From an uncultured Chloroflexia bacterium (GTDB lineage: Bacteria > Chloroflexota > Anaerolineae > Anaerolineales > Anaerolineaceae): a DNA stretch of 32,000 nucleotides. The stretch covers positions 1,200,001 to 1,232,000 of the forward strand of contig OY969938.1 in assembly GCA_963704755.1 (NCBI GenBank), read 5' to 3'. The notes under the pieces are model-generated. The model ran no database searches, was not told where the DNA came from, and saw only the letters and a list, made by a program, of their open reading frames with translations. Position numbers and translations under genes: made by a program. How positions within the stretch are numbered: position 1 is the first letter of the stretch; each line of letters begins with the position of its first letter. Below, piece after piece: positions 3,341 to 20,309 of this stretch.

Positions 3341-3815
3341 ATGCCTTACCTGGTTGACGGACACAATCTGATCCCCTACGTTCCCGGGATAAACCTGACC
3401 GACCCGGACGACGAAGATAAATTGATCGACCTGCTGATCGATTTTTGCCGGGTACGGCGCCAAAAAGTCGAGGTATTTTTCGACCAGGCTGCACCCGGCC
3501 GGGCCGGCCGTTCCAGCCGCGGAGCCTTGACCATTTTTTTCGTCGCCGCCAACCTGACTGCCGACGAAGCCATTTACCGGCGCCTGCAAAAACTGGGAAA
3601 AGATGCGCGCAACTGGAAGGTGGTCAGCTTCTGACCGGCAAGTCCAGGCCAATGCAAAATCCAGCCTGGCCACCGTAATCCCCTCGGCAGATTTCGCCCA
3701 AAGTATTCTGGAGACGAAAGGCGCCGGGAAAGAGAAATCCGGCTCGCAGGCCACCGAGATGAACCCCGCCGAGCTGCAGGAATGGCTGCGCCTGTTCAAG
3801 GACCGAAAAGACTGA
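3341..3815 (+). pseudogene. NYN/YacP(Rae1)-like PIN-fold RNA-binding protein, interrupted by a 1-nt frameshift near 3623-3631
   Basis: AAGGAG RBS 8 nt upstream. The N-terminal MPYLVDGHNLI motif is typical of YacP-like NYN proteins. Frame A stops at 3632-3634 after KVVSF. The +1 frame continues SASDRQVQANAKSSLATVIPSADF, which restores the conserved VV(S/T)SDR motif if one nucleotide is removed. Confidence 0.7.
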
Positions 3816-4059: not shown

Positions 4060-4084
4060 GTTCGTTTAAAAGCCTGTCCGTGGT

Positions 4085-5365
4085 GCCTCAAAATAAAATG
4101 TTACTTTGGGATAATCGTTGCCTCAAATAGAAATGTTACCGGAGAATTCTTAACAATTGATTGACCTTTTTATTGATACTGGCCTGTAAGGACACAGGGT
4201 TCAGATGAACATATTGGGCAGTAAGACTGGCCTTGACTTTCAGGGGAAGAAGTCCTGGGCTAAGACCCGGCGATAGGGGGTCTTGGCCAGATCATACTTA
4301 CGGATCGTCTTGCCGTCAACGGTTTCTTTAGCAATCAGTTTGAGAACTGGCTGGAAAAAATTGATGTAAAGACGCAAATCGGAGTAAATGGATTTGAGCA
4401 AGGCAAGTTCTTGTGGGGTTTCGAAGCGGTCATAGCCAATGGTATGTCGAACAACCGACCAATTCTTCTGTTCCACATGAGCCTGATCATTCTTGTGGTA
4501 AGGCCGCGAACGCGTAAAGGTAATGAGTTCGCTCTGGCAGTATCGCAAAAGTGTATCGTTGATGAATTCACTGCCATTGTCTGAATCCAATCCCAAAAGA
4601 GGAAAAGGCAGGTTATGGCGCAATTCCTCAATGGCTTGAGAGACAGCTGTCTGGGTTTTGTTGGCCAGGCCCAGGCACTCGGTCCAGCCGGTGGCTAAAT
4701 CGGTTGCAGTGAGGGTATTGAGGTAGGTACCCTCGGTGGTTGTACCACAATGGGCCACCAGGTCGATTTCCAGAAAGCCTGGCTTCTCGTCCTCCCAAGG
4801 GGTAAAGGTGCGGATGGGAATGGCTTGTTTGAGCAAACTGCCCGGTTTGGTAGTCCCAAGCCCACGTGGGGTGGGGGCGAGGCGTGCCTTTTTCAAACAG
4901 CGATCTATGGTGGCCCGGCTCAAGCTCAACAAAAGCGCTTTGGTTTCCTCGCTCAACTCTATTTCCTGCCAGCGCTCTAAAACATCCACCATTTCAGGAA
5001 TAAAAGGCTGTAGTCGTTTTGAGCAGATGCACCCACTAACTTCCCAAATCTTTTCCAGAGCCACGACGACTTCCCCGTTGTATTTCTTCCGTCGCCCGGC
5101 TTTCTTCAACCCCTTTGGCTTGGAACCATGCTTCAACAGCCGAATAGCGTATTTACGATGATATCCGCTTGTGGCGATAAATTCATCCAGAATCTGTTTC
5201 TTCTCGGCTTTCCTGGCTTTCAAATAGCGCGGACGAATGCTTTCTAGCATCTCCCGCCGACTGCGTTAACTCATCATGAGCTCCCTCTGCGGTGCTTTAT
5301 TCCGCGTTAGGGTAACATTTATTTTGAGCCAACGTTATTTCGCAAAGTAAGATTAATTGTGAGGC
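4085..5365 (-). mobile_element. insertion sequence (~1.28 kb) with imperfect ~56-bp terminal inverted repeats and a single rve-type transposase gene
   Basis: Left end 4085-4140 aligns by eye as the reverse complement of right end 5311-5365, roughly three-quarters identical with a few indels. Each end contains two copies of a GCCTCAAA(T)A(A/G)AATGTTAC-like submotif. I saw no target-site duplication. Confidence 0.75.
4240..5250 (-). CDS. DDE (rve/integrase-core) transposase, IS family uncertain
   Basis: 336-aa ORF with an N-terminal HTH-like region (KKQILDEFIATSGYHRKYAIRLLK). Candidate catalytic residues are D in FLEIDLVAH, D in LGLDSDNGSEF, and E in HVEQKNWSVVR. Confidence 0.85.
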   Translation of the reverse strand: MLESIRPRYLKARKAEKKQILDEFIATSGYHRKYAIRLLKHGSKPKGLKKAGRRKKYNGEVVVALEKIWEVSGCICSKRLQPFIPEMVDVLERWQEIELSEETKALLLSLSRATIDRCLKKARLAPTPRGLGTTKPGSLLKQAIPIRTFTPWEDEKPGFLEIDLVAHCGTTTEGTYLNTLTATDLATGWTECLGLANKTQTAVSQAIEELRHNLPFPLLGLDSDNGSEFINDTLLRYCQSELITFTRSRPYHKNDQAHVEQKNWSVVRHTIGYDRFETPQELALLKSIYSDLRLYINFFQPVLKLIAKETVDGKTIRKYDLAKTPYRRVLAQDFFP

Positions 5366-5376
5366 AATTCGCTGTC

Positions 5377-5405
5377 TTGCGAGCCACGAATTCAAATGCT
5401 ATAAT
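5377..5405 (+). promoter_or_regulatory. sigma70-type promoter of tRNA-Arg
   Basis: TTGCGA (5377-5382), a 17-nt spacer, then TATAAT (5400-5405). The -10 element ends 13 nt before the mature tRNA 5' end. Confidence 0.6.
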
Positions 5406-5418
5406 CCAGACGCAATCA

Positions 5419-5491
5419 GCCCCCGTAGCTCAATGGACTGAGCAAGGCACTCCTAACGCCGAGACTGTGGGTTCAACTCCCACCGGGGGCA
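5419..5491 (+). tRNA. tRNA-Arg (anticodon CCU)
   Basis: Hand-folded cloverleaf. Acceptor GCCCCCG/CGGGGGC, D arm GCTC-AATGGACT-GAGC, anticodon loop CTCCTAA, T arm GTGGG-TTCAACT-CCCAC, discriminator A, no encoded CCA. The anticodon stem has only 3 Watson-Crick pairs, flanked by A27-G43 and A31-C39. Confidence 0.8.
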
Positions 5492-5495
5492 CAAG

Positions 5496-5544
5496 TAGCG
5501 GGTAGCTTTTAGCTTTTAGCGGTTAGCTTTTGGCTGGTAGTATG
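5496..5544 (+). repeat. heptad tandem repeat (TAGCNNN)x7 directly downstream of tRNA-Arg
   Basis: TAGCGGG TAGCTTT TAGCTTT TAGCGGT TAGCTTT TGGCTGG TAGTATG, read directly from the sequence. Confidence 0.8.
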
Positions 5545-5683
5545 AAAAAGTTTGGAATGGATGTTCGGGCCGGTCTCCAGACTGAGCCCGCTCTTCGACG
5601 CACGTCGGAGAACCCGACCTGGAAAGCCATATAACGCCAGGCAGAAAAGCATACAAAAATAGTAAGTTCGTTTGCCCAAAAGG

Positions 5684-5717
5684 AGCCCGGCGCAGGCCGG
5701 GCTTCGTGTTTTTGTTG
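5684..5717 (+). terminator. intrinsic terminator-like hairpin + T tract (module C1)
   Basis: AGCCCGGC-GCAG-GCCGGGCT followed by TCGTGTTTTTGTTG. Confidence 0.65.
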
Positions 5718-6026
5718 CAGCGATTTCAATCGCCAACGTAGAAATGGACGCAGCGGTTGAAATCGCATCTACAAGTACACAAAGCCCCACCTTCGTGGGG
5801 CTCGATCCGCACCCAGGCGATAGCCTAAATCCCGACTTTGAAAGCTGGACTACGACCTCAATAATCCCATAGTTTGGGTCTGCAACATGTTTCACACCCC
5901 AAGCGATCGGGCCGGTCTCCAGACCGAGCCCGCTCTTCAGCGCGTATAGAAGAACCCGGCTTCGAAAGCCGGGCTACGTAGATGCAGAAAAGCGCCCAAT
6001 TAGGATGATTTCGTTCGACAAAAAGG

Positions 6027-6060
6027 AGCCCGGCGCAGGCCGTGCTTCGTGTTTTTGTTG
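6027..6060 (+). terminator. intrinsic terminator-like hairpin + T tract (module C2)
   Basis: AGCCCGGC-GCAG-GCCGTGCT (one stem mismatch) followed by TCGTGTTTTTGTTG. Confidence 0.55.
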
Positions 6061-6314
6061 CCGCGACTTCAATCGCCAACGTAGAAATGGACGCAGCGGT
6101 TGAAACCGCATCTACAAGTACACGAAGACCCACCTGCGTGGGTCTCATTTCGACCGAAGCTAATTTGCACCCCCAGTGTTCGGGCCAGCCCCTCCTCACT
6201 TCAGGCTCCGGCCGAGCCCGCTCTTCAACCCGTATAGAAGAACCCGGCTTCGAAAGCCGGGCTACGTAGATGCAGAAAAGCGCCCAAATGGGATGTTTTC
6301 GTTCGACAAAAAGG

Positions 6315-6348
6315 AGCCCGGCGTAGGCCGGGCTTTGTGTTTTTGTTG
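6315..6348 (+). terminator. intrinsic terminator-like hairpin + T tract (module C3)
   Basis: AGCCCGGC-GTAG-GCCGGGCT followed by TTGTGTTTTTGTTG. Confidence 0.65.
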
Positions 6349-6764
6349 TCGCGACTTCAGTCGCCCAGTAAAGCTTTATCCATGCCTGAAGGGTGGCAAA
6401 TTATCTTCTTCACCAGGATACGGCGGTTGAAACCGCATCCACAAGTACACGAAGACCCACCTTCGTGGGTCTCAATCCGACCGAAGCTAATTTGCACCCC
6501 CAGTGTTCGGGCCGGTCCCTCCGCACTTCAGGCTCCGCCCGAGCCCGCTTTTCATCATTGGCAAGGCCCCCGGCTTCGAAAGCTGGGCTGCGACCTCAAA
6601 ATCTTCACAGTTTGGATATATGACATGCCTCACGGTCCAAGCGATCGGGCCGGTCTCCAGACCGAGCCCGCTCTTCAGCGCGTGTAGAAGAACCCGGCTT
6701 CGAAAGCCGGGCTACGCCAAAGCGGTGAAGCGAACAATTATCTCAATGATATTAGTCTACAAGG

Positions 6765-6798
6765 AGCCCGGCGCAGGCCGGGCTTTGTGTTTTTGTTG
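6765..6798 (+). terminator. intrinsic terminator-like hairpin + T tract (module C5)
   Basis: AGCCCGGC-GCAG-GCCGGGCT followed by TTGTGTTTTTGTTG. Confidence 0.65.
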
Positions 6799-6887
6799 CA
6801 GCGACTTCAGTCGCCAACGCGCGCTTACCAAAAATCTATTTATGCTATCATTATTTCCAACTACCACCTTACGGAGTAAACACACTC

Positions 6888-7226
6888 ATGGATAACACCG
6901 TCGTCTTATTCACCCGCAATGGATTGGGGGACGCCCCCGCCGAACTACAGCAAAAACTGGTCGTCAAGTTCCTCTCACTGATGATCGCATCAGGCGATTT
7001 GCCGGCAGTGATTTTGTTCTACACCGAGGGGGTCAAGCTGGCTTGCCAGGGTTCCCCCGTCCTGGAGCAGCTCAATCAGTTGGAAGCCAGGGGCGTACGG
7101 CTGGTCTTGTGCAGCACCTGCCTGGAATTCTTCGGCCTGGTCGACCAGGTTGCGGTCGGGATCGTGGGCGGTATGGGCGATATCCTCACCACCTTGCAGA
7201 ACGCCGGAAAAGTGCTCAGCGTCTAA
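6888..7226 (+). CDS. DsrE/DsrF-like protein resembling the C-terminal domain of YedF-type sulfur/selenium relay proteins
   Basis: 112-aa ORF. The pattern VVLFTRNGLGDAP.EL..KL...FL..L......P..ILFYTEGVKL...GSP.LE.L..LE..GV.L..C.TCL..FGL...V.VG..GGM..I matches the YedF/DsrE-like fold family. Confidence 0.7.
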   Translation: MDNTVVLFTRNGLGDAPAELQQKLVVKFLSLMIASGDLPAVILFYTEGVKLACQGSPVLEQLNQLEARGVRLVLCSTCLEFFGLVDQVAVGIVGGMGDILTTLQNAGKVLSV

Positions 7227-7642
7227 GAATGCTCGCGCAAATGCCCGACCAGTTCGATTTCGATCTGTGAACACAGGTTGGGGTTCTGCCAGGCTGATTC
7301 CGGCAACTGCCAAAGCAGCTCGATCCATTCCCGGCGGCGCTGCTCGAACAGCGCCATCACCGCGGCTTCATCCCAGGCGGCAAAGCGATCCACGGCGGCC
7401 GCGTTGAACGCATCCACGTCGTAATCCGGTGATTTCCAATCCGGGTCGTCCAACAGGCACTTCACCGCCGGGATCCCTTCTTCCCACCAGGCAATCACGT
7501 GCCCCAGCAGGTCGGCCAGGCGCAGGTAGCCTTGCTGTTCGACAAACTGCTGCCGTTCAGCGGGCGCCAACCGCCGGATCATTTCGGCATAGGCCTTCCA
7601 ACCCTCCAGCGCCGCCAAACATTCTGTTTTCAACGAATCCAT
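7223..7642 (-). CDS. ClbS/DfsB family four-helix-bundle protein (DUF1706)
   Basis: 139-aa ORF; GHVIAWWEEG and the C-terminal ELVGHLREH are typical of the DinB-like ClbS family. Its stop overlaps the DsrE-like stop within CTAA at 7223-7226. Confidence 0.75.
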   Translation of the reverse strand: MDSLKTECLAALEGWKAYAEMIRRLAPAERQQFVEQQGYLRLADLLGHVIAWWEEGIPAVKCLLDDPDWKSPDYDVDAFNAAAVDRFAAWDEAAVMALFEQRRREWIELLWQLPESAWQNPNLCSQIEIELVGHLREHS

Positions 7643-7667
7643 GCCTTTTATCCCCTCCCTGGGCCAG

Positions 7668-9701
7668 TTACAGGCCCGGGCACGAAAATTCTTGCGCGAC
7701 CTCGGCCTGGACGGTTTCCCAATCCCCGTTCTCTGGCGGGTTGGTCAGAATTGTCTGCCAAATTGAGCACAAATAGCCTTGCTGGCTTTTATCCAATTGA
7801 ATGACCCGTTGACTGATTTTCATTGCTGTTTCGGCGTCGCCAGCATCGACCGCCCCTTTAATAAAATGAGTTAACTCGACGGGTACATTTGGAGCGTACC
7901 CCAACAAATCGGCCTCAGCCAGCAAGCTCTTAGCCTGATTCCAGTCACCTGTCTGCATAGCCAGGTCGGCTTTCTCAAAATAATAGCACCAATCCCGCAC
8001 CGGCTCGGGCGTAAAAACCTCGGCCAGGTAAGGGTTGTTGTTGGACTCCAGGGTTATTCGACTCAAGTCACTCAGCGGCAGGGCGGACGCAACCATATCG
8101 TTCAGGCCAGGCATCCCCTGAAAGCTCTGATCGGCAACCCACAAACATTGACCTTCTACAGATTTGAATTGAATGACCAGGCTATCGGAAGCATTTCCAT
8201 CGAAGGTCAAATGCTCCATGCGGTTTTCATGCAAATTCGTATCGGGTTGGGGCAAAGACCGCGAAGTGAACTTGCCCAGATCGTAATACCAGTAATCTTC
8301 CGTCTCTTTCCCGTCCGGCTGGCCATACACAAAATTGATCCACGAATCATCTACCCAAGAGCCGGTAACTAAAACGCCATCCCCAAAAACGGCCGTACCC
8401 GGCTGCAAGCCCGGGGCGCGCCATTTCAACTGCCAGAACAGGCGCACCTCTTTTTCCCAGGTCCAGCGAAAGGTGTTTTCCAGGCGGAACTGGTAACCGG
8501 CTCCCAATCCGATCAAAACGCACAGCAGCAGCACCTGCGCCCGGCGGGTGAGCAGCAAATCGAACAGGCTCACCAGCGCCAGGCTGGCCCCAAACAAGGC
8601 CGCCAGGCCAAAACGGTCGGCGTAATTGCCGGTGGACACGATGTGCTGGTTGATCAACCAGGCCGGCAAGAACCCGGCCAGCATGACCAGCAGGCTGATT
8701 CCTAACCAGCTCAGCGATTTTTTGCTTCCGTTTGCCTCTTCCTTTGGCTTGAGCAGCGCGCGTGCAAAAAAATAGGCCAGGGCGGCCACGCCAACGGCCA
8801 ACAGCCAGGAAATCAGCGTCGATCCGGGGGTGATATCGATAGTAGTTGGCTGGTAGGTTTTGTACCAGGCCCCGGCAAGCGCTTCGACTACATCCCGCAG
8901 TCCTTTGACTGCAAAATCGATCAGCGTTTTGACCGGCGTTGATAACAGGCCGGTCAAAACGACCGGCGCATTGCGATCCACACCGGCGGTGGGCATAAAA
9001 AACAACCGCCAGACCACAAATATCCCCAATGCCAGCAGGTAAGGCGCCTCGTTGACCAGTGTTTTTAGCCAGCGTTGCTTCTTATCGCCTACATCCCGCA
9101 GCAAGGCCCAGATCAATACCGGGCGGATCAATTCCAGCCCGACAAAATATTCCAGGGTAAACAATTGCAGCCCGGTGGACAGCACCGCCAGCACTGTGGC
9201 CGGGATACGCCAGCGTGGATGGCGCATGGCCAGGATCATCAAGGCCAGCGAAGCCCCATACAGGCTGAAGCACAGCCAGTGGTCGCTAAACGTGACCCCC
9301 GCGGTCTGCTGCAGGAAAATAGGATACACCAGCGACAACGCCGCCGCCAGGCTGATCAGACCCTTCTTCTCCGGCCAGGTTTCCTTGAAGCTCCACCATA
9401 GCAGCACCGTCGCCAGCCAGCGCAGCCCTAAAGACCAAAGCTGCCAGCCTACCCGCGAGTAGCCGTTCAGCAGAAAGCCGATCCACCAGGGCCAGGCCCC
9501 AAAAGGACGGTCGACCGCGAAAGAATACTCTTGCAAGCGCATAAACCCGCCCTTGAACAACTGGTACAGGTCCACCCAATCGTCCAGGTAATATCCTAAC
9601 CAATGGGATTGCAATGCATAAGCGATTAGCGCCAGCAAAAGCAGCGCCAGCGGGATGGGGAAGATGAATTGGATCTTGCCGCGGAAGAGGCGTATGGGCA
9701 T
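7668..9701 (-). CDS. large polytopic membrane protein, GT-C-like putative glycosyltransferase with a C-terminal soluble (TPR-like) domain
   Basis: 677-aa ORF. The first ~420 aa contain at least 10 hydrophobic segments; the rest is a hydrophilic C-terminal domain. It sits 25 nt upstream of the ClbS-like gene on the same strand. The family call is inference. Confidence 0.65.
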   Translation of the reverse strand: MPIRLFRGKIQFIFPIPLALLLLALIAYALQSHWLGYYLDDWVDLYQLFKGGFMRLQEYSFAVDRPFGAWPWWIGFLLNGYSRVGWQLWSLGLRWLATVLLWWSFKETWPEKKGLISLAAALSLVYPIFLQQTAGVTFSDHWLCFSLYGASLALMILAMRHPRWRIPATVLAVLSTGLQLFTLEYFVGLELIRPVLIWALLRDVGDKKQRWLKTLVNEAPYLLALGIFVVWRLFFMPTAGVDRNAPVVLTGLLSTPVKTLIDFAVKGLRDVVEALAGAWYKTYQPTTIDITPGSTLISWLLAVGVAALAYFFARALLKPKEEANGSKKSLSWLGISLLVMLAGFLPAWLINQHIVSTGNYADRFGLAALFGASLALVSLFDLLLTRRAQVLLLCVLIGLGAGYQFRLENTFRWTWEKEVRLFWQLKWRAPGLQPGTAVFGDGVLVTGSWVDDSWINFVYGQPDGKETEDYWYYDLGKFTSRSLPQPDTNLHENRMEHLTFDGNASDSLVIQFKSVEGQCLWVADQSFQGMPGLNDMVASALPLSDLSRITLESNNNPYLAEVFTPEPVRDWCYYFEKADLAMQTGDWNQAKSLLAEADLLGYAPNVPVELTHFIKGAVDAGDAETAMKISQRVIQLDKSQQGYLCSIWQTILTNPPENGDWETVQAEVAQEFSCPGL

Positions 9702-9984: not shown

Positions 9985-12688
9985 ATGGTTAGCGACAATA
10001 TGCCGGCTCAAACAAAAAACACTTACGGCTTGCTGCACACCAAGCTCATGCCGCCGCGCCTGCATACGGGATTGCTGCCGCGGCCGGCCCTGTTCGACCG
10101 CCTGGACCAGGCCCTCAAAAAGAAACTGACCCTGGTCATTGCCCCCACCGGCTTTGGCAAATCGACCCTGGTCGGTAGCTGGATCGCCGCCCGGACTGCC
10201 CAGGCTGCCTGGGTGACCCTGGACGAGAACGACAACGACCCGGTCCGCTTCTGGACCTACCTGATCACTGCTTTGCACAACTTCGCTCCGGCGTTGGGGA
10301 AAACTTCGTTAGCCGCCCTGGCTGCCCCCCAGCCCTCTACCGACCAATCCGTGCTGGTGCCACTGATCAATGACCTGGCCCAACTCACTGAGCCGTGCGT
10401 TTTGGTCCTGGAGGACTACCAGGTTATCCAATCCGGCGAGATCAACGAAGCCGTCACTTACCTGCTCCAAAATCTGATCGATCCGCTCCACCTGGTGATC
10501 CTTTCGCGCAGCGAGCCGGACTTGCCTTTGGCCATTTTGCGCGCCCGGAACGAGCTGACTGAAATCGACGCCGCCGACCTGCGCTTTTCGGATGAAGAGA
10601 CCCAGGCTTTCCTGCACTCAGCCATTCAAAGCGACCTCCCCTCCGAGGCGGTCAGCCAGCTCCAGGAAAGGACAGAAGGTTGGCCGGCCGGTCTGCGACT
10701 GGCCGCCCTGGCGCTGAACAATCAGAAAGGTCAGGCCGGTCTCGAAAGCGTACTGCAATCCTTTTCTGGCAGCCATCCGTATGTGGCCGATTACCTGATC
10801 CAGGAAGTGTTCAAGAACCAGTCCCCCAACGTGCAGACGTTTTTATTGCGAACCGGCTTCCTGGACCGCTTGAACGCGTCCTTGTGCGAAGCGGTCAGCG
10901 GCATAGCCAAATCGGCCGGGCTGCTGGAAAAGCTCGCCCGGGAAAGCCTGTTCATCGTTCCCCTGGAGAAAAGCGGCCACCAGGCCTGGTACCGCTACAA
11001 TCCCCTATTCGCCGAAACTATCCAGTATTTAGCCCGCCAGCGCCTGGATGCGGTCGAGATTACGACCCTCTTCGAAAAGGCCAGCGCCTGGTATGAATAC
11101 CACCAAGATTATGAAAATGCGGTTGAAGCAGCGTTGTCAGCCAGGCTTTACCCGCGTGTGCTCACCTTGATCGAGAAATACATCGAAATTCAATCCATAA
11201 CCGCGGTCCAAACCCTAAAGCGCTGGTTGAGCAGCGTCCCGGATCAATATATTTTCGAACAACCGGAAGCCAGTTTTACCTATGCGCAAGTTATATTATT
11301 CACCGAAGACCGTTATGCCCCGGATATGGCGTCTAAGCTCGAACCTTACCTGAACGCGGCCGAAAAAAGTTGGGGGAAAGAAAATAACCGTGCCCGGTTA
11401 GGGGCCGTAAAGTCGCTCAGGGGAATCACTGCCTGGTGGCAAGGTGATATTGCGAAAGCCTGCCGGCTTGCGCAACAATCTCTGGACGAAATTCCCGAAA
11501 CGGATATTTTTTGGAGGGGCAACAGCCTGCTCATCAGTGCGTTTGGCGACCTGAACTCAGACGATATCTTCGCGGCGCAAGACACGATTTTGGAAGCGCG
11601 TGCCCTGTTAGGCGCAGCCAATAACATTTACGGCGTTTTAGCCGCCACCCAGATCCTGAGCGCCGCCGATTACTGGCTGGGCGAACTGGAACAGGCCCGC
11701 CAGTTGAACGAACAGATCATCGCAGAAGCAGTCGGCAGTGAGGATATGCTCGACGACCAGGGCATTGCCCGCCTGTCCCTGGCAAATATCAGCTACGAAG
11801 AAAACGATTTGCCTACCGCCGAAAACTACCTGCAAGAGGCATTGGACCTGGCGACCCGGCGCAGAAACGAGCTGCTACTGGCCCTGGTGACCGGCCGCCA
11901 GGCCCGCCTGCAGCTTGTCCGCGGAAAACCCGCCCAGGCCGTGGACCTGCTTGAAAGCCCAGGCCACCCGGCTGCAAAACCCCAATGCCCTGCGCGAGAT
12001 CGATATCGCCCTGGCAGAAATATCTGCCCACGTCCCTGCACCTGCGGCAGCCGGCAAATCTGCGCTGGAAGCCCGCCAGGGATCCGGCAGCCTGTTATTC
12101 CTGGAACAAGAACGACTGATGTTCGCCCAGGCCGGCAAATTGATCCGCGCCGGGATGAATTCAGAGGCGTCGAAACTCCTCGCCGGCCATGCGGCGGACG
12201 CGGCCAAACACGGCCGCATCCGCAACCAGGTCGAAGCCCTCTGCCTGGAAGCGCTAGCATATCAGGCTGCCGGCCAGCCGGAGAACGCCAGAGCTGCTTT
12301 GATCCAGGCATTGGCCGTTGGGCAGGCCAAAGGTTTCGTGCGCCTGTTCATCGACGAAGGCGTCGAAATGGCCGGCTTGCTCAAGCAAGTCATTCCCACT
12401 TTATCCAAACGCGCCCTGGCCATGTACGCCACCACTTTACTGCAAGCTTTTCCCAGCGAAATCGGCGCCGTGCCCCCCGGGGCTGCCGGACTGATCGAGC
12501 CGCTCAGCCAGCAAGAGCTGCGCGTCTTGCGCTACCTGGTGGCCGGCCTGTCCAACACCGAAATCGGCCAGGAGCTGATCGTCTCGACCAACACGGTCAA
12601 AACCCACGTCAAGAATATCTATCGCAAGCTCGACGTAAGCACCCGGGGTGAAGCCCGCCAGGTCGCCCACGAGCTCAACCTGATTTAA
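9985..12688 (+). pseudogene. MalT-like STAND ATPase / LuxR-family transcriptional regulator, interrupted by a 1-nt frameshift near 11951-11958
   Basis: N-terminus LLHTKLMPPR...LTLVIAPTGFGKSTL (MalT-type P-loop), then a long helical/TPR region. After ...AVDLLE the first frame becomes Arg/Pro-rich nonsense. The +1 frame continues AQATRLQNPNALREIDIAL...GFVRLFIDEG... and ends with a LuxR HTH (LSQQELRVLRYLVAGLSNTEIGQELIVSTNTVKTHVKNIYRKLDV). Confidence 0.85.
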
Positions 12689-17195: not shown

Positions 17196-17906
17196 ATGAT
17201 ATTTGGCTTTGATACTCGAAGTTCAGATTCGCCCCTGGTTCAATCTGTTTGGCGCTCTCACAGTGAGGGCGGCGGTTCTTTTATCTCAACCGCTGCGAGC
17301 CAATGGGAAATGGTCGTGACCAAACAGCGAGACCAATTGACCTTGAGTGTACGCGGACCGGAGACGCAGGCATCCCCCGCACCGGTGCCGGAAGACGCGG
17401 AGTTTTTGGGCGTTGTCTTCAACCATGGCGTGTTTATGCCCCAGTTGCCGAAAAGGAAACTGGTCGATAATGAAATCCACTTGAACGAGACCGCCAAAAA
17501 CACATTTCAATTTCTTGGTTCTTCCTGGGAATTCCCCACATTCGAAAATATGGATACTTTCGTCGAGCGTCTCATGCATGCGAATGTTCTGGTTTTCGAT
17601 ACCATCGTGACGGCTATTTTACGCGGGCAGACGATTTCCTTGTCTCGGCGTTCGATCCAGCGGCGCTTCTTGTACGTGACCGGGTTGACTTTTAAAACCA
17701 TCCAACAGATCAAGCGCGCGCAGCACGCTTCGTCGCTCCTGAAAGGGGGCATGCCGATCGCAGATGCTGCCAACGAGTCAGGATATTTCGACCAATCCCA
17801 TTTAACCAACTCCCTGAGACGTTTCTATGGGCAAACCCCGGTTGAGATCGCCAATCAAGCCAATCTTCACAGTGGCGTTTTTTTCCAAGACGAGAACTCC
17901 CCGTAA
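17196..17906 (+). CDS. AraC family transcriptional regulator
   Basis: The C-terminal AraC-type HTH pair (RRSIQRRFLYVTGLTFKTIQQIKR...AANESGYFDQSHLTNSLRRFYGQTP) is clear. ATG 17196 is preferred over GTG 17178. Confidence 0.85.
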   Translation: MIFGFDTRSSDSPLVQSVWRSHSEGGGSFISTAASQWEMVVTKQRDQLTLSVRGPETQASPAPVPEDAEFLGVVFNHGVFMPQLPKRKLVDNEIHLNETAKNTFQFLGSSWEFPTFENMDTFVERLMHANVLVFDTIVTAILRGQTISLSRRSIQRRFLYVTGLTFKTIQQIKRAQHASSLLKGGMPIADAANESGYFDQSHLTNSLRRFYGQTPVEIANQANLHSGVFFQDENSP

Positions 17907-17945
17907 AAATATAATAGGACAAACAATATCCAAGAGGAATTTCCG

Positions 17946-18515
17946 ATGAGAAAATTGATTGTTCACCAATTTATTACGTTGGATGGCGTGATTCAAGCGC
18001 CAGGCGATGCTGTGGAGGATGTCGACGCGGGCTTTCCCTACGGCGGCTGGTCGATGCCTTACTGGCATGATGACATTGGCGCCCATTTTGGCCAGGCGTT
18101 TGCGCAAGCCAACTCGCTGCTGCTGGGGAGGAAAACCTGGCAGGGCCACGGGAAAGCATTCGGGCCTCATCCCGACCAGGACCCCTTTGTGGGGATGAAA
18201 AAGTATGTGGTTTCCAATACCTTGCAGTCGGTCGAAACCTGGTCGGATTCATTCATCATCCGCGGCGATGCGGTCGAAGAAGTACGCAAGTTGAAAAACC
18301 AACCTGGAAAGAACATCATTTTGGATGGGAGCAGCGTTCTACTGCGCAGCCTGATCGAAAACGACCTGATAGATGAGTATATGCTGCATGTATACCCGCT
18401 GGTGCTTGGTATGGGAAAGCGCCTGTTTCCGGATGGGAAGCGAATTCCATTGAAGCTGATTGAAGCAATCCCACTGCCAACCGGTGTCATCTATCAAAGA
18501 TACCAACCCGAGTAA
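17946..18515 (+). CDS. dihydrofolate reductase family protein (RibD C-terminal domain type)
   Basis: 189-aa ORF. MRKLIVHQFITLDGVIQAPG...GGW..PY...LLLGRKTW...KKYVVS.TL...IILDGSS.L..SLIENDLIDEY.L.V.P..LG.GKRLF is characteristic of this family. Confidence 0.9.
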   Translation: MRKLIVHQFITLDGVIQAPGDAVEDVDAGFPYGGWSMPYWHDDIGAHFGQAFAQANSLLLGRKTWQGHGKAFGPHPDQDPFVGMKKYVVSNTLQSVETWSDSFIIRGDAVEEVRKLKNQPGKNIILDGSSVLLRSLIENDLIDEYMLHVYPLVLGMGKRLFPDGKRIPLKLIEAIPLPTGVIYQRYQPE

Positions 18516-18536
18516 GTTCCATCGCTTAGTACGGAT

Positions 18537-18579
18537 GTTTCCCCGAGATATGCCTGCTACAGGCGTATCTCGGGGAAAC
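18537..18579 (+). terminator. 19-bp stem-loop after the DHFR-family gene (probable terminator)
   Basis: GTTTCCCCGAGATATGCCT-GCTAC-AGGCGTATCTCGGGGAAAC with one G-U pair. A T6 run follows 12 nt downstream. Confidence 0.55.
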
Positions 18580-18686
18580 CATAAGGCCCTTTTTTCAGCA
18601 GACCATGTGGTTTAATGGCGCCATATCACGATTCCGAATAATTAATAGTTGGGCAGGCTATCCTATTGAGGAATCGCTAAAAACTT

Positions 18687-19445
18687 GTGCAATTTAAATT
18701 TGTAAAAGAAAAACTGGACTACTCAGATCTTGCTAGCGGGCGAGTTTTTTATAGTATGTCAGGACATCCTGCTTTTCCTATCCGGCTGGCGAGTGAAATA
18801 TTCCAACGTTGTCTGGCAAATCGAAAAATTGTCTACAATAATTCAACGCCATGTACCCTATACGACCCCTGTTGCGGCGCAGCCTATCACCTCAGTGTAC
18901 TGGCTTATTTACACAGAGAGCATGTTCGAGAAGTCATTGGCTCGGACATAGATGAAAAAGCAATCACTTTGGCAAGCCAGAATCTCGGGTTGCTTGGTGT
19001 CGCTGGTTTGGATAAACGCATCAGCGAAATCTCTAAAATGTTCGAGATGTACCATAAAGATTCTCACAAAGACGCTTTAGCCAGTGGGTATATTTTAAAA
19101 GACAGAATTTCTGCTTTAGAGCAAGAACATCCGCTAACTACAAAGGTGTTTCAGGCAAGTGCCACAGACAGCAAAACGATTATCAAAAATGTAAAAACCA
19201 AATCAGTGGATATTGTTTTTACTGACGTTCCGTATGGGCAACACTCCCATTGGCTCGGTTTGAATTCCAACGAGGAATTGGACCCGCTCGGGTTAATGCT
19301 GAATGCGCTTGTTGAAATCCTTTCCACATCAAGCATTGTGGCAATCGTTGCCGACAAACAGCAAAAGGTATCCCATAAAGGTTTTCAAAGCGTTGAGCAA
19401 TTTCAAATAGGAAAACGGCGAGCAGTTATCTTGAAACCTAACTAA
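18687..19445 (+). CDS. SAM-dependent methyltransferase with (D/N)PPY-type motif IV (N6-adenine or N2-guanine class), orphan
   Basis: 252-aa ORF with a GTG start. Motif I-like LYDPCCGAAY and motif IV-like FTDVPYG. It lies in visibly AT-rich DNA (37% GC in line 19081-19140). Confidence 0.7.
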   Translation: MQFKFVKEKLDYSDLASGRVFYSMSGHPAFPIRLASEIFQRCLANRKIVYNNSTPCTLYDPCCGAAYHLSVLAYLHREHVREVIGSDIDEKAITLASQNLGLLGVAGLDKRISEISKMFEMYHKDSHKDALASGYILKDRISALEQEHPLTTKVFQASATDSKTIIKNVKTKSVDIVFTDVPYGQHSHWLGLNSNEELDPLGLMLNALVEILSTSSIVAIVADKQQKVSHKGFQSVEQFQIGKRRAVILKPN

Positions 19446-19458
19446 TCAATAGACGCTT

Positions 19459-19775
19459 TTATGTTGTCACTGCCCGCTCGTAAAATAGGACCTCCACTCT
19501 TTGAATATGCTCGACCACATTCGGGTCCCGGATTTCGTGATAAATAGACAGACCAAGCGTATACGGCAAGAATAAATCATCGATATCATCGAGAATTCTA
19601 CACAATTCATTAAGGTTAACCCTGAACCGCCACGTAAGGTAAGCTCAATATCCGAGCCATTCCGATAGTTGTCTTTGGCGCGTGATCCATATTGAATAGC
19701 TTGATCCACATACGGGTGCTCTTTAAGGACCGTACGAATTTTCCGAATGGTGCTTTCAGACAGGCCATAATTCAT
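19459..19775 (-). pseudogene. MNT-type minimal nucleotidyltransferase (HI0073-like antitoxin-type), frameshifted near 19615-19625
   Basis: N-terminal YGSRAKDNYRNGSDIEL is the GS-x-D-x-D/E nucleotidyltransferase signature. After RGGSG the track frame gives nonsense. The -1 frame reads VNLNELCRILDDIDDLFLPYTLGLSIYHEIRDPNVVEHIQRVEVLFYER, the conserved C-terminus, and stops at 19459. Confidence 0.75.
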
Positions 19776-19927
19776 TCCTGTTCCTCCCGCCTCAATTCAT
19801 CCAATTTGTTACGAACCACAATGAATTCACCGATATATGCATTTAGTACGGCAGTGACAATTTCGGCTGCCGTGGCTTCGTCGTAGGTATATACTAGACC
19901 GCTTTTGCCGAGGTTGGTAATCGACCA
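19772..19927 (-). pseudogene. C-terminal remnant of an HI0074-type nucleotidyltransferase substrate-binding (HEPN-like) protein
   Basis: My manual translation gives WSITNLGKSGLVYTYDEATAAEIVTAVLNAYIGEFIVVRNKLDELRREEQE*. This resembles the ...RN.TSHTYDEE.A.EI...I..F... C-terminus of HI0074-family proteins. There is no start codon, an in-frame stop lies upstream, and its stop overlaps the MNT ATG (ATGA). Confidence 0.45.
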
Positions 19928-19986
19928 TAGGTTAATTATATAAAATAATGCTATTGATGAAAATTACCCTTTATAGGAAAAAGCTG

Positions 19987-20055
19987 TTAGCAATTAGCCC
20001 TTAGCCATTAGTAAAAAAGCTAATCGCTAAAAGCTACACACTAACAGCTATCTTG
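19987..20055. repeat. heptad-periodic repeat downstream of the tRNA-Glu copies (TTAGCNN x4, then NNNAGCT x5)
   Basis: + strand: TTAGCAA TTAGCCC TTAGCCA TTAGTAA AAAAGCT AATCGCT AAAAGCT ACACACT AACAGCT. In the tRNA orientation the second half reads TAGCTGT TAGTGTG TAGCTTT TAGCGAT TAGCTTT. Confidence 0.75.
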
Positions 20056-20236
20056 TGCCCCCAAGCGGATTCGAACCGCTGTTTTGGCCTTCATGACACC
20101 TCGACGGTGTGAGAGGGCCATTGCTAATCGCTATCTGCTATCTTGTGCCCCCAAGCGGATTCGAACCGCTGTTTTGGCCTTCATGACACCTCGACGGTGT
20201 GAGAGGGCCATTGCTAATCGCTATCTGCTATCTTTG
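20056..20236 (-). repeat. two tandem ~90-bp units, each holding a partial tRNA-Glu (positions 27-73) with a 19-nt anticodon-loop insertion plus three TAGCNNN heptads
   Basis: Units 20056-20145 and 20146-20236 are identical by eye apart from one extra T. In each, the first 36 nt equal the tRNA 3' part. Then come a 19-nt CATGACACCTCGACGGTGT, GAGAGGGCCA (anticodon stem/loop 5' side) and heptads. Confidence 0.85.
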
Positions 20237-20309
20237 TGCCCCCAAGCGGATTCGAACCGCTGTTTTGGCCTTGAGAGGGCCACGTCCTGGGCCGCTAGAC
20301 AATGGGGGC
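20237..20309 (-). tRNA. tRNA-Glu (anticodon CUC)
   Basis: Hand-folded. Acceptor GCCCCCA/TGGGGGC, D arm GTCT-AGCGGCCCA-GGAC, anticodon arm TGGCC-CTCTCAA-GGCCA, T arm AGCGG-TTCGAAT-CCGCT, discriminator A. It closely resembles canonical bacterial tRNA-Glu. Confidence 0.9.

Follow-up and report, generated by a model that had tools for sequence, protein, structure and literature searches.

Which kind of element occupies the 1.26 kb between a tRNA-Arg gene and a dsrE/yedF-like gene in an uncultured Chloroflexia bacterium? Within the 32-kb window analyzed here (contig OY969938.1, positions 1,200,001 to 1,232,000), this interval is filled by a tandem array of hairpin repeats, assembled from modules designated A to H, which an initial annotation had read as paralogous structured RNAs, each with its own terminator. 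Part of that proposal held, namely the non-coding character of the array, the common orientation of its modules, the four terminators and the maintenance of the hairpins, but selection of + strand RNAs as independent genes did not. We tentatively prefer an account in which a lineage-specific non-coding array expanded by amplification where the tRNA-Arg(CCT) transcription unit has its 3' trailer, with the C modules serving as serial intrinsic terminators.

The modules and their order, ABCDEF / B'H / ABCDEFG / ABCDEFG / ABH / ABCD, were all recovered by sequence inspection, repeat families and unit alignment, within a few bases of the positions first given to them, and every module is co-oriented with tRNA-Arg on the + strand. 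Between A and B lies an extra 5-bp hairpin, S (TCTTC-N10-GAAGA), which was missing from the earlier module list. Together with ~14 nt upstream, A-S-B forms a core of ~85–100 nt, and a covariance model search retrieved five copies of this core at 73–107 bits plus a degenerate one at 16 bits. Core-to-core segments are either long, comprising a 45-nt spacer followed by C, D, E and F (with G as well in units 2 and 3), or short, consisting of H; the two short A-B-H units carry no terminator. C-D and E-F constitute the arms of a 51-nt inverted repeat and are 76% complementary. The third D-E-F is indeed longer than the others (net +39 nt), but what had been described as a ~55-nt insert is a replaced linker, 56 nt taking the place of 17 nt with 13/56 identity.

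The repeats far exceed expectation: four copies of C were found with at most one mismatch (0.02 expected), B occurs as three exact 26-mers (0 expected), and a degenerate A-S-B pattern matched 5/5 cores (0 expected). Self-BLAST revealed two collinear blocks, 5565–6266 against 5907–6592 (74% identity over 745 nt) and 5831–6081 against 6569–6819 (82% over 255 nt). Being co-oriented and spanning several modules, these blocks show the pattern of tandem or segmental duplication rather than that of independent insertions. Identity between units is blockwise and blind to the distinction between stem and loop, linkers and loops being included. Specifically, units 2 and 3 are 91–94% identical over about 290 nt, whereas units 1 and 2 alternate between highly similar blocks (A 26/27, C 35/36, D-E linker 17/17, E-F linker 15/16) and poorly conserved ones (S 13/21, B 16/26, spacer 29/45); units 2 and 5 share 71/73 positions of A-S-B, loops included, yet only 29/49 of the spacer. 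Such blockwise identity across loops and linkers fits conversion or duplication tracts of different ages. Decay is visible in some copies, B1 having lost its hairpin, the B'H unit both A and S, and C2 carrying a stem mismatch. Read from the sequences, this pattern points to concerted evolution through segmental tandem duplication, gene conversion and decay, and not to purifying selection on helices.

The local hairpins are nevertheless real. In the named helices, 97.6% of cells pair for C, D, E and F and 90.8% for A, S and B, compared with 27–48% in a control in which the 3' partner was slid by 1–3 columns. The compensatory change in stem F that had been put forward as a sign of RNA selection is present (C-G to A-T). 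D shows another, T-A to C-G, for which D2 represents the C.A intermediate, and A a third; as support for RNA selection, the three are not significant against shuffles. In the shuffling tests, 113/500 and 182/500 shuffles reached the observed covariation score, and the RNAalifold covariation terms were ~0 or unfavorable, so that covariation does not demonstrate the + strand selection once claimed from it. The G-U pairs cited in favor of a + strand RNA likewise carry no strand signal, because the six A.C/C.A mismatches of the + strand in the core tally would be G.U on the − strand, balancing the five + strand G.U pairs; outside this tally, E1 adds one for the + strand and D2 one for the − strand, and the long A variant of core 3 also favors the − strand. 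For unit 2, the − strand gives a slightly more stable fold (−118.3 kcal/mol, z −5.1) than the + strand does (−107.7 kcal/mol, z −4.1). Its minimum-free-energy fold draws CDEF as one long stem. We rejected such a single hairpin, as the D:E and C:F pairing it requires is disrupted by the substitutions in D, E and F, which leave each local hairpin intact; since the compensatory changes in D and F preserve the local stems at the expense of this long-range pairing, the modules behave as separate hairpins. Across all these comparisons, the hairpins other than C show no detectable selection as trans-acting RNAs.

No coding function was detected. A six-frame Pfam scan of the array returned 0 matches, in agreement with its earlier description as non-coding. 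A six-frame chimeric query against 5.8 billion proteins yielded 8000 word candidates, none at E≤0.1, and an exhaustive phmmer search with the longest open reading frame (ORF; 113 aa) against 1.84 billion representatives produced only a low-complexity chance match to a repeat protein. The ORFs differ from unit to unit and are interrupted by the linker of unit 3. In Rfam 15, only the two tRNAs of the window reached the gathering score; within the array, even the best matches at E≤10 fell far short of it, for example MIR9672 with 25.6 bits (gathering score 74 bits) and RsmY with 17.4 bits (57 bits). We also considered, and rejected, type I toxin-antitoxin repeats of the LDR or Sib-like kind, given that the ORFs vary between units and that AAGGAG belongs to the C stem, with no start codon within 5–12 nt. 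The resemblance of B to a tRNA T arm proved superficial: its stem is closed by C:G, while a canonical T arm closes with G53:C61. A tRNA-like core or tRNA pseudogene was discarded as well, ARAGORN reporting none at default thresholds and, at 70%, a poor cloverleaf with three acceptor-stem mismatches.

The terminator scan called three C copies strong and C2 weaker, the latter because of a G>T mismatch in its stem (−13.6 versus about −20 kcal/mol for the others), thereby bearing out the four + strand intrinsic terminators. The T tract 3' of C is intact in 4/4 copies on the + strand only, as had been stated, the − strand showing T5 in two copies; in units 2 and 3, C is terminator-like on the − strand too (CCTTTTTGTC tail). 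This T tract is the sole + strand asymmetry left after the full count. The C modules are the top-ranked terminator-like sites across the window, in which terminator-like hairpins occur at chance level (19 versus 21.9 expected and 22 versus 19.1, from shuffled sequence). Within the window, no strong canonical terminators other than the C modules were found, which suggests that intrinsic terminators are uncommon in the source genome. No terminator was called between tRNA-Arg and C1.

A TTGCAG-18-TAGAAA promoter suggested previously was not upheld: its −10 hexamer has no T at position 6, the scan did not call it, and it is missing from unit 3. The sole promoter-scan match inside the array is TTGAAA-16-AATAAT (5838–5865, in B'/H), where about one is expected by chance, and neither the scan nor the sequence revealed a promoter conserved per unit, the H4 counterpart being weak and unit 3 having none. 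A promoter-like TTACCA-15-TGCTATCAT at 6825–6851, between C5 and the dsrE start, was noticed by eye in the sequence, the scan making no call there. Judged in this way, the tRNA-Arg promoter is the only convincing candidate for driving the array.

Outside this locus the array left no trace in the data searched. Neither self-BLAST nor the covariance model search located its modules in the remaining ~30.6 kb of the window, and the three relatives examined (L006, L007 and L008) lack them. An exact B 21-mer, the only module scanned in this collection, gave four isolated generic hairpins among 185,579 GTDB species representatives (Trinickia, Acidobacteriota), with no other module nearby. The C pattern and a tolerant A-S-B pattern had 0 matches in JGI metagenomes, and the B, C and A-S-B patterns had 0 in viral contigs; whole-array BLAST found no match in phage records and, in plasmid records, only the heptamers that follow the tRNA gene (a Pseudanabaena galeata plasmid). 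A literature search on repeats in Anaerolineae returned nothing relevant. The source contig is 4.87 Mb long, and homologues of the DsrE protein are labelled as coming from Anaerolineaceae, Longilinea and Chloroflexota, among others. L007, a syntenic relative with 76% DsrE identity, has the gene order DnaX, an LTD-domain protein, NYN_YacP, tRNA-Arg(CCT), pfkB, two genes of 87 and 356 aa, dsrE and a MalT-like gene; in the closest relative, L006 (82% DsrE identity), a 365-aa gene overlaps the dsrE start. Alignment of the window with its relatives showed that homology resumes only at the dsrE start codon. Since these relatives carry genes and no modules upstream of dsrE, the array occupies a site of ancestral gene loss. 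It is apparently lineage-restricted, an extragenic mosaic of hairpin and terminator repeats.

Because the tRNA promoter is the only convincing one, no terminator precedes C1 and the C copies rank highest in the window, amplification within the tRNA-Arg trailer is the account we provisionally adopt. Ancestral genes between tRNA-Arg and the dsrE/yedF-like gene would have been lost from the site, and the array would have grown in place by unequal crossing-over or segmental tandem duplication, later modified by gene conversion and decay. Its + strand would be transcribed from the tRNA-Arg promoter, with the C modules acting as Rho-independent terminators in series: C1 would end most transcripts, leaving a structured trailer of ~225 nt (heptamers, A1, S1 and B1), while C2, C3 and C5 would catch read-through, and C5 would insulate the downstream dsrE-like gene. 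The A, S, B and D–H hairpins may be co-amplified passengers that make the read-through RNA highly structured.

Several observations weigh against this account. In 4/4 long units, C begins exactly 70 nt after B does (5612–5682, 5955–6025, 6243–6313 and 6693–6763). The 45-nt spacers, which hold a conserved GCAGAAAAGC able to pair with the U tract of C in the consensus fold, share no more than ~60% identity from one unit lineage to another; a spacing kept constant despite ~40% divergence suggests that length is constrained, which would be unnecessary for a passive passenger. In addition, a 1.26-kb non-coding array persists with copies diverged by up to 40%, which hints at a benefit beyond that of one terminator, deletion bias being usual in bacteria. 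The three compensatory changes in D, F and A fall in local hairpins. Finally, the A loops are C-rich (UCCA; CCUCCUC) and resemble the anti-Shine-Dalgarno loops of known sRNAs (small RNAs), a lead read from the sequence only.

Table 1. Coordinates of the repeat array, its units and the flanking features in the window.
Feature	Position	Strand	Evidence or remark
IS481-like insertion sequence	about 4084–5354		336-aa rve-domain ORF 4240–5250, − strand; inverted repeats near 4126–4140 and 5311–5325
Sigma-70-type promoter of tRNA-Arg, TTGCGA-17-TATAAT with TG extension	5377–5405	+	Promoter scan, 10/12 matches; −10 kept in syntenic relative L007
tRNA-Arg (CCT)	5419–5492	+	ARAGORN; Rfam tRNA model, 59.2 bits
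Heptamer repeats, TAGCTTT-like, 45 nt, immediately 3' of tRNA-Arg	5496–5540	+	TRF
Complete repeat array, 1259 nt	5562–6820	+	Inter-unit homology from TGTTCGGGCC to just past GCCAACG of D5
Core 1 (pre-A, A, S, B), B hairpin destroyed	5555–5638	+	Covariance model, 79.3 bits; folds
C1, first intrinsic terminator 3' of tRNA-Arg; 10-bp stem, −20.8 kcal/mol, tail GTGTTTTTGTTG	5682–5717	+	
D1-E1-F1, three small hairpins; 121-nt imperfect palindrome together with C1	5718–5804	+	
Degenerate unit lacking A and S, with a partly broken B' followed by H1	5810–5908	+	Covariance model match 5769–5856, 16.3 bits
Core 2 (A, S, B intact)	5897–5980	+	Covariance model, 107.1 bits
C2, terminator copy with G>T stem mismatch, −13.6 kcal/mol	6025–6060	+	
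D2-E2-F2-G2	6061–6180	+	Repeat families, unit alignment
Core 3, long A variant, 15-nt extra loop (CCTCCTCACTTCAGG-rich), A.C mismatch on + strand	6170–6268	+	Covariance model, 94.5 bits
C3, terminator copy, also terminator-like on − strand	6313–6348	+	
D3, replaced 56-nt linker, E3-F3-G3	6349–6507	+	Unit alignment
Core 4 (long A, divergent S, B with G.T pair), then H4	6497–6646	+	Covariance model, 72.7 bits
Core 5	6635–6718	+	Covariance model, 105.9 bits; A-S-B 71/73 identical to core 2, loops included
C5 terminator and D5, last unit, truncated; 72 nt separate it from the dsrE/yedF-like start codon	6763–6816	+	
DsrE/YedF-like gene, downstream boundary of the array	6888–7226	+	Pfam DsrE; TIGR03527 YedF-like, below cut-off

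At its 5' end, the array may extend to about 5546, where a weak H-like similarity (AGTTTGG) was observed. The 3' end is not an assembly artefact, because an independent 1.2-kb Logan contig (L001) is 100% identical to positions 6687–7858; this contig breaks at a 30-mer common to three B copies. Elsewhere in the window, two apparent frameshifts relative to the L007 homologues were noted, at about 3627, where the NYN_YacP match is split (3341–3628 and 3627–3806), and at about 11880–11910, where the MalT-like match is split (10354–11871 and 11906–12685, the second part in another frame). They represent either pseudogenes or indel errors of long-read assembly, and the latter would bear on the trust placed in homopolymer lengths such as those of the T tracts; the segment 6687–7858 is confirmed exactly by the Logan contig. 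Upstream, the IS481-like element is inserted just before the tRNA-Arg promoter, at a place where L007 carries two other genes.

In the reading closest to the initial annotation, a tandem family of two to four paralogous + strand sRNA genes, each running A-S-B-spacer-C over ~155–190 nt to its own terminator, would act in trans, for instance through C-rich A loops pairing with ribosome-binding sites, with unit 1 as a product of the tRNA-Arg 3' trailer. The layout, in which three hairpins and an A-rich spacer lead up to a strong terminator with its U tract, is typical of sRNAs; terminators are intact in 4/4 C copies; the fixed B-to-C spacing despite spacer divergence agrees with such genes; B'/H1 contains the promoter-like TTGAAA-16-AATAAT sequence, and an intact core with its terminator comes after each of the two H modules. 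Tandem sRNA arrays are, moreover, already a known kind, as exemplified by NsiR1 (PMC4030482). We nonetheless consider this family unlikely, though the most probable of the rivals: no promoter recurs from unit to unit (a weak H4 counterpart, none in unit 3), covariation stays within the range of shuffles, the wobble tally of 5 versus 6 gives no strand bias, loops and linkers are conserved as much as stems, some units are degenerate, no Rfam family matched even at E≤10, and the array is absent from all relatives and collections searched. A more specific version, in which a young and still-amplifying family of tRNA-linked, terminator-bounded three-hairpin sRNAs with C-rich, anti-Shine-Dalgarno-like apical loops acts in trans on mRNAs and is made partly from the tRNA-Arg trailer and partly from weak internal promoters, seems to us slightly less probable again; we came across no described family of regulatory RNAs for this Anaerolineae lineage.

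The mosaic of module combinations could also reflect a local cluster of small mobile palindromic elements, with B as a REP-like element and CDEF as an ERIC-/MITE-like imperfect palindrome of 121 nt, together forming a BIME-like assembly amplified locally. On the − strand, B reads GTAG directly before the palindrome (GTAGCCCGGCTTTCGAAGCCGGG), as GTAG-CCCGGC-TTTCGAA-GCCGGG, in 4/6 copies; the 51-nt arms of CDEF are 76% complementary and both strands fold equally well; and REPs, which sit mostly 3' of genes, are able to function at the RNA level (PMC3733652). Against mobility, all modules, including the six B copies, have a single orientation, while REPs in BIMEs alternate (PMC2817692), and the collinear blocks cover several modules. 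CDEF has no target-site duplication, its left flank being AAAAG and its right flank GATCC, ATTTC or AATCC; no further copies occur in the ~30.6 kb of flanking window, and the B 21-mer gave only the generic hairpins described above. The window contains no RAYT gene. We therefore regard an origin from mobile palindromes as improbable. The adjacent IS481-like element was also tried as a parent and rejected, its GGTAACATTTATTTT-type ends being unrelated to any module.

Serial integrations at the tRNA gene, leaving repeated att sites as scars, had been offered as an alternative in the initial annotation. The array does adjoin the tRNA 3' end, where gene content differs from that of the relatives, and the other tRNA of the window, tRNA-Glu, carries two tandem partial 3' copies. 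Integration scars are very unlikely here, however, because no module resembles the 3' end of tRNA-Arg (self-BLAST of 5493–6887); furthermore, B is not a canonical T arm, ARAGORN rejects the core, and no tyrosine or serine recombinase lies nearby, the adjacent rve protein being an IS481-like transposase with its own inverted repeats.

Still less credible is descent from a decayed gene, specifically from the 3' end of pfkB, which adjoins tRNA-Arg in L007. On the − strand, B reads AFEAGFFY, compared with SFDAGFMY in the L007 PfkB motif, and by an odd coincidence a 23-nt segment of L007 (7634–7656, encoding the GAGD...AGF motif), which lies about as far from tRNA-Arg as B does, shares 87% identity with B; this origin was rejected because the Smith-Waterman score falls within dinucleotide shuffles (35/300 and 29/300 as high), and six-frame Pfam gave 0 matches while tblastn and tblastx with the genes of the relatives gave only noise. 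Equally remote is a duplicated cis-regulatory leader, attenuator or riboswitch-like, of the dsrE/yedF-like gene: the last unit (A-S-B-spacer-C5) does end 90 nt before the start codon, but the promoter-like sequence at 6825–6851 lies between C5 and that codon, the gene is leaderless and translationally coupled to the upstream gene in relatives, no Rfam family matched, and no alternative antiterminator pairing is evident in the consensus fold.

The second tRNA locus of the window offers observations of its own. Behind the tRNA-Glu(CTC) gene (20236–20309, − strand) stand two tandem units of 90 nt with 99% identity to each other (20056–20309 region). Both contain part of tRNA-Glu, namely the stretch that begins at the anticodon stem and reaches the 3' end, and in both the anticodon loop is split precisely between positions 37 and 38 by a 19-nt insert (CACCGTCGAGGTGTCATGA); each partial copy is preceded by heptamer-like AGATAGC repeats, and no integrase lies nearby. 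These repeats fit an RtT/tyrT-like architecture or an att-scar duplication better than the tRNA-Arg array does. Heptamers of the TAGCTTT / TTAGCNN type stand directly 3' of both tRNA genes (5496–5540 and 19987–20050) with a 95% match between the loci, and the only outside match is the similar run on the Pseudanabaena galeata plasmid. The region 17900–20000, 3' of tRNA-Glu, has a lower G+C content (0.42–0.49) and may be a small island at the tRNA; it encodes an AviRa-type rRNA methyltransferase (18687–19445), a Pol-beta-type nucleotidyltransferase (19467–19775, − strand) and a RibD_C protein.

If the tRNA-Arg array is only amplified trailer and terminator DNA, it provides a tidy example of tRNA-adjacent non-coding repeats accumulating and homogenizing in a Chloroflexota genome, and it indicates that canonical intrinsic terminators, otherwise rare in the window, do exist in the source genome. 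If it instead gave rise to discrete abundant RNAs, these would be the first sRNA family for Anaerolineae, with sRNA genes caught in tandem amplification. The finding concerns one locus in one genome and does not yet open a larger question.

Among known systems, the array departs from each family compared in at least one defining feature. The rrnB T1-T2 pair places tandem terminators after a strong stable-RNA promoter, and the array likewise has serial intrinsic terminators 3' of a stable-RNA gene that would insulate the next gene; unlike T1-T2, it repeats a single terminator module at intervals across 1.1 kb inside an amplified repeat. The RtT RNA and the 178-bp repeats 3' of Escherichia coli tyrT are tandem repeats immediately 3' of a tRNA gene as well, transcribed with the tRNA and released as small structured RNAs, but each tyrT repeat holds the tRNA 3' end, whereas the tRNA-Arg array has no tRNA fragment and no Rfam match; the tRNA-Glu locus (20056–20235) is the better fit. 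ERIC/IRU, Correia/NEMIS, RUP and BOX elements are dispersed in tens to hundreds of copies, often with target duplications. The ~121-nt imperfect palindrome of CDEF is comparable to ERIC in size and form, and the modular composition recalls the A/B/C style of BOX; in contrast to these elements, variation in the array favors four local hairpins over one long hairpin, and CDEF lacks a target-site duplication.

REPs are imperfect palindromes of 20–40 bp with a GTAG (or CGTC) tag, which in the GTAG type lies beside the palindrome (PMC3733652). A genome usually has more than 100 of them, and within BIMEs neighboring REPs point in alternating directions (PMC2817692). BIME and REP clusters of E. coli and other bacteria resemble the array in being extragenic, located 3' of a gene and composed of a mosaic of short GC-rich imperfect palindromes and other motifs, and some REPs serve as terminators or RNA-stabilizing hairpins. 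B bears the tag on the − strand in the four copies already mentioned, with A, C and F untagged; unlike BIMEs, the array modules run one way, its multi-module blocks are collinear, no copy was found elsewhere in the data searched, and no RAYT gene was seen. Tandem sRNA genes, which include LhrC1-5 and PrrF1/2, share with the array intergenic direct repeats whose long units each end in a Rho-independent terminator. NsiR1 comprises 12 tandem copies in heterocystous cyanobacteria, each with its own promoter and conserved across all members of that group (PMC4030482), whereas the tRNA-Arg array has no conserved per-unit promoter, partly degenerate units and nothing comparable in relatives. The proposed working of the array would come closest to that of tandem terminators, tRNA-linked trailer repeats and BIME-type clusters, and would match tandem sRNA arrays such as NsiR1 less well.

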